Below, piece after piece: positions 56,096 to 59,402 of a stretch of 64,000 nt of DNA. Origin of the DNA: Candidatus Heimdallarchaeota archaeon. Its GTDB lineage: Archaea; Asgardarchaeota; Heimdallarchaeia; Hodarchaeales; Hodarchaeaceae. The stretch lies in NCBI GenBank assembly GCA_020353515.1, contig CP070695.1:3424050-3488049 (forward strand). The letters are read 5' to 3'. Each line of letters begins with the position of its first letter. Positions within the stretch are counted from its first letter, which is position 1. Both the position numbers and the translations under genes were made by a program. The notes under the pieces were generated by a model. It made no database searches and had not been told where the DNA came from. It worked only from the letters and a program-made list of their open reading frames with translations.

Positions 56096-57196
56096 TTGCA
56101 GAATGATGTAATTTTCTCGGTATTTGACCGCAAAAAAGGCCCAGTTATTTTATATTCTTCGTTAGATTCTCCAGACAGCTCGAAGAGGGTCGCTGTGAGA
56201 TCTTTTATAGCTATTGGCGCAATGGAGGAGCAAGCAGATCTAAGCGGTAAACATGCTGTAGTACCTCTACCAGCTCTTAATAAAATAGCATTTTATTACA
56301 TGTTCAAAGTAGATCGGAAAGAAAAGAGTGATGAATCACCTCTATGGGCTACAATCGGATATATGAATGAGAGTACTGAATCGATTGATTTTTATCGCAC
56401 TCTACCAATTATACAAGAAAATATCCAAAAAATTGTTGAATTAATTCAGCTAAACTTTTCGTACTCTGATCAAGACAATACGTTGAATAGAGTAATCATT
56501 GAATCCATTTCATCTCTCCAGACCCTTCAAGAAGAAACAGTAAAACCTACTCCTATCTATGAACCACCTGGAACTGTGCCACAAGAATCAGTTACAGGAA
56601 TTACTTTTGAGGATTTCAAAGTTGGCGATCTTTCCTTTCTTTTTGAGTACTTTCCTGAAGATCTTGACAAAGTGATTTATGCGCTTCTGCTAGAAGAACC
56701 CGTATTAATTATTGGTGATATTAGAGATATAGTCCAGAAGGTCGTTGCGTCTCTTGAATATCTTGTTCCTCATAGGTTACTTACAAAGAAGTATCTGACT
56801 AATTACATTGATCCTAAAGGTAGTGACATACTGATCTGTTCCTCTCATGTTAATTTCTTGAAAAAATACAAAAATTTCGTAAATGTTAATGTCGATAAAC
56901 GTAAGGTAGATTCAAAAATAAAAGGAGTTCCTTCGATTAACGATCTAATTAATACTCTTCAAATTGCCCCTAAAGAAACACAGACTACTCTGATCAAAAC
57001 TTATGTTGACAAGCTCCTTGCTAAAGCAGCTGAACTTATGGAGCTCTGTGAACCGGAGCAAATAAGTAAAGAGGAGATTCGTAGTTTTCGAGGTGACTTA
57101 AAGGGCGATGAACTAAATGTTGTTATTGCTTTAGTGCGAAAATATGCTCCGCAATTTGAAGATAAACTGTTCTATTTTGCTAGATCGTTAATATGA
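56096..57196 (+). CDS. DENN-domain-like protein (uDENN longin plus cDENN), putative small-GTPase GEF
   Basis: FSVFDRKKGP uDENN start; LFEYF..DLDKVIYALLLEEPVLIIG..VVASLEYLVP cDENN core. Confidence 0.7.
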   Translation: MQNDVIFSVFDRKKGPVILYSSLDSPDSSKRVAVRSFIAIGAMEEQADLSGKHAVVPLPALNKIAFYYMFKVDRKEKSDESPLWATIGYMNESTESIDFYRTLPIIQENIQKIVELIQLNFSYSDQDNTLNRVIIESISSLQTLQEETVKPTPIYEPPGTVPQESVTGITFEDFKVGDLSFLFEYFPEDLDKVIYALLLEEPVLIIGDIRDIVQKVVASLEYLVPHRLLTKKYLTNYIDPKGSDILICSSHVNFLKKYKNFVNVNVDKRKVDSKIKGVPSINDLINTLQIAPKETQTTLIKTYVDKLLAKAAELMELCEPEQISKEEIRSFRGDLKGDELNVVIALVRKYAPQFEDKLFYFARSLI

Positions 57197-57455: not shown

Positions 57456-58286
57456 ATGGTAACACCTATTGATGTAATAACTGCTTATATTATCTATTTT
57501 CTCCCAACCATAACGCTTTCATTATTGACAGTATTAATTGGGCTTATTGTTTATTATTTTGGTAAAAAGAGAAACCTTTGGTTAATGGAAAATACGTTTT
57601 CTTCAATTTCTCATGGAAGCGGAAAAAGGATAACCGAGTTAAAATTAGTAGAAGAAAGTACTATGGGAAGAACTTATCTTGCAGAGGTTAAGCCTGACCT
57701 TTCAGTTACAAATTTTCGTATACATTTTACAATGGTTCACCGTCATTTAATCCTTAGTAAGATTGCATCAATTATACGAAAAAGACGTGATTACATCCTT
57801 CTTGAAGCTGATCCAAGTGATAAAGTAGTTAATCGTTACCAGCTTGAGATTCTTCCCCGGAGGGAACATAATAGGATTAAAAAGCTAGTAGACATGCTTG
57901 GTAAATTACAAACCTTAGAAATTAGAAATCCTAGGTTTGAAGAATCTTTCATAGCAAGAGTGAATGATTCTGATTTTTTTGAAGCTATCTTTCAGAAAAA
58001 TAAAAGACTCATTCAAATTCTTTTTAATCAAAGAAATCACATTGTAAGAGTCTCTCTTTATCCTTTGGAATCACCATCTATTCGGGTAGTAGCTGAATTA
58101 AATGAGCAGGTTAACCCTAAGCTACTGATTGACGTTATATTCTTTTCAGCAGCTGCAATCACTTCTGTTGCAAAAAAAGGATTTTTTGCTAAACAAAAAG
58201 CTGGTCTGCGCGTTGTACCAGATAAAACATTGGAAAAAGACAAAGAACGATTTGCAAAACCATATGAAAAGAGAATACTAAAGTAA
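57456..58286 (+). CDS. CCDC47/DUF1682 (PAT complex)-like membrane protein
   Basis: N-terminal TM then [26 protein letters not shown] and colinear downstream blocks resembling CCDC47; basic C-terminal tail. Confidence 0.55.
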   Translation: [276 protein letters not shown]

Positions 58287-58301: not shown

Positions 58302-58811
58302 TTAATTCTTTGTTGCTAAAATTTTCTGTTCAATTTGGTTTCTAAGATCAAAGACATCAATTTCTTTAGAAGAGAAACGATATATTGGTAAATCAACATA
58401 GTCTCCCTCTAAATCCTCTTCATATAATTTTATCATGAATCCTTTGGCTCCATAATGCGAATATGAAACTGAAAGTGATACAACAGAAAAATCAGACCAA
58501 GAATATTCGAAAGAACGCTTACCAACTGTTAAAACAAAACCATCTGGTTTAAGAACTAGGGTCCTCTTTACATAACGAGTGAAATATAGATAACTCATCA
58601 TAGCTGCTCCAATGATTAGAACTATTATTGACCCGAGATCTATAGCGATGAAAATTTCTCCAGTGTACCGAGCGAGAATTACCCTAATTACTAGAAATCC
58701 AAGTGTTTCTATAGTTAAAATGACAGCAAAGGTGAATATTACTGAGAAGCCAATCTTGCTTCGAAAAATGGTCTCTTCTTCATCTATTAACTCCTGTTTT
58801 AGCTGAGAAAT
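58302..58811 (-). CDS. two-TM membrane protein with bacterial-PH-like C-terminus; probable ATT start
   Basis: Frame is open 70 codons upstream of ATG 58601 and adds two TMs; GAGGT 7 nt before ATT at 58811; EYSWSDF motif. Confidence 0.6.
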   Translation of the reverse strand: MSQLKQELIDEEETIFRSKIGFSVIFTFAVILTIETLGFLVIRVILARYTGEIFIAIDLGSIIVLIIGAAMMSYLYFTRYVKRTLVLKPDGFVLTVGKRSFEYSWSDFSVVSLSVSYSHYGAKGFMIKLYEEDLEGDYVDLPIYRFSSKEIDVFDLRNQIEQKILATKN

Positions 58812-58814
58812 TTT

Positions 58815-59402
58815 CTAAACCTCATTAGTCTTTTGCCAAAATTTTATACTAAACCCTTTTCTATCTAGATTCTTTGGATGAAAGAGTTTTTCTCCACGTC
58901 TAGCAATGAAGCTATCAGAATGAACTATCTGGATATTTTTGAGATCTGCATAAAGCAATGCTGTATCTCGTTGATTGAATCGCTCAAGATGTTTTTTGAC
59001 TTTCTCGGGAAGTCCTCCCTCTCCAAAAAATAAAATCCACAACCATTCCAGTTCTAATTCAGATCGAAAGGAAGTTATTTCCCGAACCCAATCAACAAGA
59101 GTTGACCACTTAATTTTCGCTGTATTCTCTATATGGATGGCTGCGCACCCAACAATATATGTTGGTGAAGCCAAAAATGCAAAAGCTCTAGATAGGAGGA
59201 ACCCTTTACCTTTTACTCCTCCGTAGACAAATAGATCTACATCATTTTTTTGAAGTACCTTTGATTTCTTCAATGCTCTTGAAATGTTAAATCCTCTAAA
59301 TGACCTATCAAAGTTCGCAATCCAACGCCCTCCTTTAATCATTAACTCATTTTCGATGTATCGAAGGTATTTCTCTTTAACAGAAAGATTCTGAGAAATC
59401 AA
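58815..59402 (-). CDS. hypothetical protein (alpha/beta)
   Basis: 195 aa, TTG start; GRWIANF, VDLFVYG, FLLSR motifs. Confidence 0.6.
   Translation of the reverse strand: MISQNLSVKEKYLRYIENELMIKGGRWIANFDRSFRGFNISRALKKSKVLQKNDVDLFVYGGVKGKGFLLSRAFAFLASPTYIVGCAAIHIENTAKIKWSTLVDWVREITSFRSELELEWLWILFFGEGGLPEKVKKHLERFNQRDTALLYADLKNIQIVHSDSFIARRGEKLFHPKNLDRKGFSIKFWQKTNEV

Follow-up and report, generated by a model that had tools for sequence, protein, structure and literature searches.

A divergent Hodarchaeales relative of the membrane-anchored core of CCDC47

A 64,000-nucleotide stretch of the genome of a Candidatus Heimdallarchaeota archaeon (assembly GCA_020353515.1, contig CP070695.1, positions 3,424,050 to 3,488,049; hereafter the window, by which the whole stretch is meant) contains at positions 57456..58286 of its forward strand a gene for a small membrane-anchored protein. 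We conclude that this protein (hereafter the window protein) is very probably a homolog, genuine but divergent, of the core of CCDC47, that is, of its transmembrane (TM) helix plus globular domain. In the literature CCDC47 figures as a protein of the eukaryotic endoplasmic reticulum (ER), where it docks on the ribosome as a scaffold of the machinery for making multi-pass membrane proteins. Homology is concluded from the agreement between fold, profile and motif evidence, and it bears out the kinship that an earlier note on this DNA had proposed on the basis of four sequence blocks of human CCDC47.

Fold evidence

The structure of the window protein was predicted with AlphaFold2 (AF2) from a 27-sequence alignment of close homologs, which resulted in a model with a mean predicted local distance difference test score (pLDDT) of 82.8 and a predicted template modelling score of 0.77 that is poor only at residues 245-276. 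A Foldseek search of the PDB with this model recovered just three chains at E<=1e-3, each of them CCDC47, namely 7tm3_4 (3.9e-11), 9i78_4 (9.7e-8) and 6w6l_7 (6.4e-6). The depositors named 7tm3_4 and 6w6l_7 coiled-coil domain containing 47, and 9I78 represents the SND3 translocon of Chaetomium thermophilum, which includes ctCCDC47 (PMC12572126). Superposition with VIA-align, a check that the earlier note had proposed, likewise placed the model on the CCDC47 chains with Z ~18 over ~230 residues (7tm3_4: Z 18.1, root mean square deviation 3.2 A, 230 residues; 9i78_4: Z 17.7). Since model residues 15-252 align with residues 135-410 of chain 7tm3_4, the match takes in the TM helix as well as the whole globular domain.

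The same picture was obtained with a Foldseek-independent scan of 48,161 representative PDB chains, in which the same two CCDC47 chains lead (Z 17.9 and 17.7). Beyond CCDC47, the sole chain above Z 8 was TtfA (Z 11.9, 158 residues), and numerous YbjN-like proteins and chaperones of type III secretion came after it at Z 5-7, which lies in a range (Z 5-8) that is common for unrelated proteins. Judged from the predicted model, CCDC47 is the nearest known structure by a clear margin, and the domain of the window protein belongs to a wider chaperone-like fold class.

Profile and motif evidence

At the sequence level the connection was made through A3, an alignment of 34 diverse family members and the sole profile to reach CCDC47 in the PDB. 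Among 177,635 distinct PDB sequences the best HMMER match of A3 was CCDC47 (E 0.003; profile positions 19-147 against CCDC47 144-282). An hhalign comparison of A3 with 18 vertebrate CCDC47 sequences, performed without the secondary-structure term, yielded 209 colinear columns (query 21-234 against 144-394) at E 9.8e-5 and a probability of 58%. The vertebrate set had been gathered with a 79-residue stretch of CCDC47 as the query, for which vertebrates alone were returned, and a word-indexed homolog search with A2, a profile slightly wider than that of the close homologs (A1), had no eukaryotes among the returned sequences. The human sequence given in the earlier note turned out to be accurate, in that a 26-residue block is identical to residues 220-245 of 6w6l_7 and 7tm3_4 and the other three blocks are present in the CCDC47 sequences retrieved. 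The four proposed pairings with the window protein are not fortuitous: the first two were reproduced by the HMMER alignment, and all four blocks are colinear in that of hhalign.

The conserved residues coincide as well. Apart from the start methionine, the 34-member alignment has no invariant residues other than R96 and D112, and G36 is nearly invariant in it; G36 and N40 are invariant among the 27 close homologs, N40 in that close set only. As the best-conserved positions of the archaeal family, G36, N40, R96 and D112 align with G156, N160, R227 and D243 of CCDC47, respectively, which are invariant across the 18 vertebrate sequences, at an identity between the window protein and CCDC47 of 10-14%.

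The Pfam family of CCDC47 (PF07946) is matched by 15 of the 34 diverse members, and no other Pfam family is matched by more than one of them. Two members of a sister family within the class reach 35.0 and 32.6 bits in alignments that cover profile positions 8-314 of 326, a member of another family scores 27.9 bits, and the gathering cut-off is 27.7 bits. Five of the 27 close homologs match below the threshold (best E 9e-4), and the A2 profile ties the sister family that passes the cut-off to the family of the window protein with E 1e-19 to 1e-25. Scans of the window protein itself against Pfam, NCBIfam and PADLOC returned nothing relevant, and a PDB profile search with a single distant family member (P0037) did not return CCDC47.

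Gene and protein architecture

The coding sequence (57456..58286, + strand), which we refer to as paralogue 1 of the genome, consists of an open reading frame (ORF) with an ATG start and 276 codons plus stop. The window has a G+C content of ~34%, and the host contig of 4,943,496 bp is single and closed, with an estimated completeness of 96%. Thirty close homologs were found at 46-62% identity, with lengths of 211-283 amino acids (aa), all in metagenome-assembled Asgard genomes that are mostly labelled Hodarchaeota, Hodarchaeales or Hodarchaeum mangrovi, with a few other submitter labels. Because the close homologs (n=27 aligned) share their start and end points and have 25 invariant residues in common, the ORF is a real and conserved gene.

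Consistent with the earlier note, the translation contains a single N-terminal TM helix, a hydrophobic run at residues ~8-35 (57477..57560, + strand) that is preceded by seven polar or small residues. In the AF2 model an unbroken helix (4-54) spans this predicted segment, which pairs with the TM helix of CCDC47 (chain residues 135-160) in both the structure and the profile alignment. Because the flank that follows the helix (KKR) is net positive and the preceding one slightly acidic, the positive-inside rule predicts an N-out, C-in orientation, with the bulk of the protein in the cytoplasm. The helix runs into the juxtamembrane motif G36-K-K-R-N40 (57561..57575, + strand), a family signature with G156-K-N-K-N160 as its counterpart in CCDC47. 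It is followed by an alpha/beta globular domain (residues 41-240; 57576..58175, + strand), predicted to be cytoplasmic, that has the CCDC47-type fold and holds the family-invariant R96 and D112.

The protein ends in a K/R-rich basic tail of 36 residues (241-276; 58176..58283, + strand) with a net charge of +7 and a motif that is conserved within the subfamily (KG-aromatic-aromatic-AK ... DKTLEKDK), for which AF2 predicts one low-confidence helix (257-274). The tail is located where CCDC47 has its latch helices, yet it is much the shorter of the two, with 36 residues after the globular domain versus roughly 90 in human CCDC47, in line with the 'shortened basic tail' described earlier.

Distribution, paralogy and tail variants

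When 400 genomes of the phylum were searched with a profile, family members were recovered in 101. Almost every genome in the class of the host carries the family (21/21, 2/2, 1/1, 26/31, 3/3, 8/12 and 11/12 genomes per taxonomic family), and several families outside this class also carry members. Some large Asgard groups yielded no match to this query, e.g. one family with a single weak match in 135 genomes. We take this distribution as vertical inheritance. Twenty diverse family loci were fetched, and the family genes therein were identified by hidden Markov model; the diverse members have a common layout, in which a short N-terminus and a single TM helix precede a basic segment next to the membrane and a domain of ~200 residues.

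A locus search based on A1 returned 11 related loci, all from metagenome-assembled Asgard genomes, mostly labelled Hodarchaeota, Hodarchaeum or Heimdallarchaeota. Within its order, 13 genomes out of 24 carry the paralogue of the window. The genome encodes a second family member at position 1,386,427-1,387,140 (266 aa, 29% identical to the window protein), which the A2 profile matches with E 1e-73 and the type of which recurs in each of the other 21 genomes of the genus. In a maximum-likelihood tree the window type forms a clade (support 99) that is nested (87, moderate) among Hodarchaeales-type sequences. As this Hodarchaeales-type group includes the second copy, the tree suggests that the two copies stem from a duplication within that lineage. 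The root of the tree is arbitrary, and vertebrate CCDC47 sits on a branch of length 3.6 and is unplaceable. The window copy is the more derived of the two paralogues and is restricted to part of the order.

The family varies most clearly in its C-terminal tail. The subfamily of the window protein has tails of 29-36 residues with a net charge of +4 to +8 and a conserved motif of their own, the second copy ends in a basic tail of about 9 residues, and many other lineages have variable tails of 0-19 residues. The sister family that passes the Pfam cut-off carries K/E-rich tails of 67-74 residues that resemble the coiled coil of CCDC47.

Gene neighbourhood

Downstream of the CCDC47-like gene lie two genes on the opposite strand. 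The first, convergent one (58302..58811, - strand) encodes a protein of ~170 aa with two TM helices and a soluble domain of ~95 aa; the second (58815..59402, - strand), directly upstream of the 2-TM gene, encodes a soluble protein of 195 aa. Both represent no known family and had no match in Pfam or PADLOC. The 2-TM gene and the 195-aa gene each adjoin in 12 of 12 related loci, and both are found in exactly those 13 of the 24 genomes of the order that have the window paralogue and in none of the other 11. The three genes are inherited as a block. This pattern amounts to co-inheritance and does not show partnership, because with adjacent genes in closely related genomes a single gain or loss suffices.

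The start of the 2-TM gene is irregular: although its frame is open from 58811, the first ATG, GTG or TTG in frame is not met before 58601 (minus strand), and its homologs have ~80 additional residues at the N-terminus. Five T come after an ATG at 58783-58781 that is out of frame, and one extra T would connect this ATG to the conserved frame, so that the irregularity could reflect a sequencing error in the homopolymer, a genuine frameshift, or initiation at a near-cognate ATT (58811-58809). For the 195-aa protein (AF2 pLDDT 79) we considered a restriction-endonuclease-type identity (MspJI, BstEII, NucS/EndoMS) and rejected it: the Foldseek matches (E 8e-3 to 6e-2) are not significant, inspection of the alignment by eye revealed no canonically placed catalytic motif, and a PDB profile search with this protein was empty.

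Upstream, at a distance of 259 nt, a gene on the same strand (56096..57196, + strand) encodes a protein of 366 aa with a sub-threshold Pfam match to C9orf72-like (DENN-type) proteins (E 0.026), and this gene is kept in 6 of 12 related loci. The 4.94-Mb genome has ~70 small-GTPase-like ORFs, the nearest of which lies 243 kb from the window gene. The genes that recur beside members of the wider family encode a YjeF-type NAD(P)HX repair enzyme, small GTPases and CstA transporters.

The second copy (L014:5917-6717) resides in a eukaryote-like gene cluster (L014:2910-7863, i.e. C1:1383336-1388289 of the genome) that encodes a ubiquitin-like protein with a terminal GG, an E2 enzyme for ubiquitin conjugation, a protease of JAMM/MPN type and two GTPases of the Arf family, both of which also score on the model for signal recognition particle (SRP) receptor beta; the cluster is followed by a threonyl-tRNA synthetase-like gene. 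In the sister family with long-tailed members, three genomes have a Ras-family GTPase gene directly upstream of the family gene, on the same strand and at a distance of 68-97 nt (L016:2325-3894, L017:2308-3897 and L018:2800-4397), and the two genes may form an operon.

In a more distant family of Asgards, a 2-TM protein of 160 aa (L034:4444-4926) has a weak match to archaeal EMC6 (E 0.025, below cut-off). Its gene is located two genes downstream of the CCDC47-family gene, and the intervening gene, which encodes a protein with four TM helices and a C-terminal zinc ribbon, also adjoins a family member in locus L033. The two most divergent of the family members fetched, which have long branches (L024:3822-5582 and L032:310-2094), adjoin genes for CstA carbon-starvation transporters and share a second conserved neighbour of ~210 aa without a Pfam match.

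Translocon components in the genome

The closed genome was searched for components of the translocon. It contains two full-length genes for SecY/Sec61-alpha (PF00344; 219 and 208 bits), one match to ribophorin I (PF04597; 55 bits) and one to the EMC3/TMCO1 family (PF01956; DUF106; 67.7 bits), and no match to TRAP-alpha (PF03896). The search for TMCO1 that the earlier note had suggested thus yields a match of EMC3/TMCO1 type, but one that we interpret as a generic archaeal insertase, because seven genomes of the control panel, including methanogen and haloarchaeal ones, also match PF01956, three of them above the cut-off. The SecY loci are situated at C1:2746504-2766299 and C1:3223078-3224298, one of the SecY genes lying 1.6 kb from the ribophorin I homolog, with the EMC3/TMCO1-type insertase at a distance of ~18 kb. 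Two or three matches to SecY are also seen in many genomes of this genus. That the second SecY would track the window paralogue was considered and rejected, as genomes of the order have one or two SecY genes both with and without the paralogue.

Proposed function and alternatives

On balance, although with modest confidence, we consider the window protein to be best explained as a membrane-anchored paralogue of the CCDC47 core that acts as a docking or scaffold protein. That it does so at a ribosome, translocon or insertase site is a more tentative proposal by analogy, which we would sooner doubt than affirm. The single-pass protein would expose almost nothing outside the cell and would present its CCDC47-type domain and 36-residue basic tail to the cytoplasm, where domain and tail would engage, at the membrane surface, a large partner that is either cytoplasmic or embedded in the membrane. 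With CCDC47 as the model, this partner might be the large ribosomal subunit beside SecYE-beta, or an EMC3/TMCO1-type (DUF106) insertase; the basic tail would add affinity for RNA or acidic lipid, and the protein would in this way aid the insertion or assembly of multi-spanning proteins. It would do this without long latch helices like those with which CCDC47 braces Sec61 shut and reaches the exit tunnel, and because the tail has only 36 residues, a gating of SecY like that of Sec61 by CCDC47 is unlikely. Besides the kinship with CCDC47, we count in favour of this reading the distribution within the phylum and the presence in the genome of SecY (two copies), the ribophorin I homolog and the EMC3/TMCO1-type insertase.

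A number of observations pull the other way. The window protein alone has no match to PF07946, and a search of the whole genome with this model was likewise empty, so that of the profile check proposed in the earlier note (DUF1682/CCDC47) the part that stands concerns three diverse relatives that pass the cut-off and not the window protein itself. PDB profile searches with A1 or A2 found no CCDC47 chain; at the level of sequence, membership of the CCDC47 family would thus be transitive, via the more conserved relatives. The hhalign probability is just 58%, with a template that is vertebrate-only and of low diversity. The fold is also common to TtfA and, more distantly, to type III secretion chaperones, proteins with clients of a different kind. 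The tail has 36 residues, whereas the documented action of CCDC47 on Sec61 and the tunnel needs long latch helices. Through its globular domain, CCDC47 touches eL6 and rRNA helix H25, and eL6 is a eukaryotic ribosomal protein. In the 33 loci examined, no translocon gene (SecY, SecE, Sec61-beta, SRP or insertase) was found near a family member.

The partners of CCDC47 also failed to appear in the closed 4.94-Mb genome. For Asterix (PF03669) the single match, within a frame of 428 aa, was at the level of noise (E 0.56); scores of this level were also obtained for four control bacteria, and a short, divergent protein with three TM helices could escape this search. TMEM147 (PF09767) had no match, the model being silent in every genome searched, controls included; Pho88/SND3 (PF10032; E 0.17) was not significant, and the Nicastrin-type model (PF05450; Nicastrin/Nicalin; E 0.016) remained below the cut-off. 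The search for Asterix and Nicalin homologs that had been suggested beforehand therefore ended without a significant match, and the proposal that the protein is a minimal archaeal precursor of this machinery is not upheld: it is a lineage-restricted, divergent paralogue with only a stub of the latch/coiled-coil region, and Asterix, TMEM147, Nicalin-type proteins and SND3 have no significant match.

The strongest competing explanation, which we nevertheless consider unlikely, is that the window protein is a client-specific, membrane-tethered chaperone or adaptor, unrelated to ribosomes and similar to TtfA, for a particular membrane complex, most plausibly one that involves the co-inherited 2-TM and 195-aa proteins or the adjacent APC permease. 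It would fit the three genes that are always adjacent, present together in 13 genomes of the order and jointly absent from 11, as well as the rank of TtfA as next-best fold (Z 11.9, 158 residues) ahead of the secretion chaperones (Z 5-7), the CstA transporters that adjoin divergent members in two other Asgard families, and a window paralogue without a long latch region. Yet a single gain or loss of the block within one genus could explain the co-presence, the neighbours are transcribed convergently and not co-transcribed, and CCDC47 is far closer than TtfA (Z 18 versus 12) and the only one of the two for which there is sequence-profile evidence.

A role as membrane adaptor in a small-GTPase or membrane-remodelling pathway, in which the protein would recruit, or be regulated by, Ras/Arf GTPases or DENN-like regulators, appears improbable. 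The second copy adjoins the ubiquitin-like/E2/JAMM set and has three small-GTPase-like ORFs at distances of 0.7-6.2 kb, two with a match to Pfam Arf, while the chance of finding a GTPase within 1.5 kb is ~4% (~70 ORFs in 4.94 Mb), and a Ras-like gene is found directly upstream, on the same strand, in three sister-family genomes. For the window paralogue, on the other hand, the nearest small-GTPase ORF is 243 kb away, and the C9orf72/DENN-like signal of the upstream gene, kept in 6 of 12 loci, is below threshold and missing from the other half; moreover, Asgard genomes are crowded with small-GTPase genes, and we know of nothing in the biology of CCDC47 that ties it to GTPases.

We have as little faith in a more far-reaching scenario, according to which the Heimdall-group Asgards had a CCDC47-based, ribosome-associated scaffold before the eukaryotes arose, Hodarchaeales duplicated it, and the window copy would form a PAT-like intramembrane chaperone with the 2-TM neighbour as a stand-in for Asterix. 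Least probable of all is that there is no true relationship with CCDC47 and that a convergent or very ancient shared fold is combined with chance motif matches: identity is only 10-14%, the window protein lacks a Pfam match of its own and its basic fold is also seen in bacterial proteins that are unrelated, but relatives pass the Pfam threshold, CCDC47 tops the PDB matches of the family profile, hhalign yields a fully colinear alignment at E 1e-4, the TM helix and juxtamembrane motif match besides the domain, and the archaeal invariant residues coincide with those of CCDC47.

Novelty and implications

A literature search found no paper that pairs CCDC47 with Asgard archaea or with an archaeal homolog. 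The papers that name CCDC47 alongside archaea concern the Oxa1 superfamily and not an archaeal CCDC47, and no citation was found of the Pfam and InterPro accessions of the CCDC47 family. Two structure-based surveys of Asgard proteins leave CCDC47 unmentioned in their main text, and the literature on the Asgard translocon lists homologs of Sec61, OST and TRAP, not CCDC47 (PMC11417166). None of the close homologs of the window gene has a precomputed Pfam domain. Databases may already tag some of the Asgard relatives, as these pass the Pfam cut-off; what is new here is a CCDC47 core without luminal domain and with a stub tail, duplicated and located in a block of three genes.

If the window protein and its family are real archaeal relatives of the CCDC47 core, at least the scaffold of the multipass/PAT machinery would predate the eukaryotes. 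The ancestral job then becomes testable in terms of binding to the ribosome, SecY or the DUF106 insertase, and of what latch helices and Asterix contributed afterwards. Nature offers variants for this ancestral question in the Asgard tails, with lengths of 0 to 74 residues, and in the Hodarchaeales paralogy. The window copy, as a derived paralogue, says less on the ancestor than the long-tailed forms do.

Comparison with known systems

The bacterial proteins in this comparison are the more remote ones. Type III secretion class I chaperones (SycT, SycH, Spa15 and others) and YbjN-like proteins have the basic alpha/beta fold (Z 5-8); unlike the window protein they are soluble, have a length of ~115-135 residues that covers about half of the domain, and lack a TM anchor. 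TtfA, the mycobacterial trehalose monomycolate transport factor A (PDB 6T84), is the next-best match to the globular domain, but a much weaker one that concerns the soluble domain only, is not accompanied by a sequence-profile signal and involves a bacterial protein with a different role.

Within the archaeal family, the second Hodarchaeales copy has the same architecture as the window copy and differs from it in its ~9-residue tail, in being genus-wide and in its location amid genes of a ubiquitin system and Arf-like genes. The long-tailed form of the sister family differs in that it has a K/E-rich tail of 67-74 residues and passes the Pfam cut-off.

CCDC47 (PF07946, formerly DUF1682), also named calumin, belongs as a PAT-complex subunit to the multipass translocon of metazoa and to the SND3 translocon of fungi, and is represented by PDB 7TM3/7TUT chain 4, 6W6L chain 7 and 9I78 chain 4. 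It pairs with Asterix and contacts TMCO1 (PMC9630114). Its latch helices, a long, conserved coiled coil of positive charge at the C-terminus, reach Sec61 and the ribosomal exit tunnel (PMC7505659, PMC12572126), where they keep the two halves of Sec61 closed and make the mouth of the tunnel narrower, in fungi and metazoa alike (PMC12572126). The window protein departs from CCDC47 in that it has no signal peptide or acidic luminal domain, with 7 residues before the TM helix versus ~135 in human, a feature shared by its close homologs, which start at the same point. Its tail of 36 residues (versus ~90) leaves no room for full latch helices, its genome has no detectable Asterix partner and encodes two paralogues, and the window copy is below the Pfam threshold. 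The two proteins agree in one TM helix that leads directly into a G-K-x-K-N motif and then into an alpha/beta domain (Z ~18 over ~230 residues) that is predicted to be cytoplasmic in the window protein, in the order of the conserved blocks, in the invariant G, N, R and D, and in a basic C-terminal extension.

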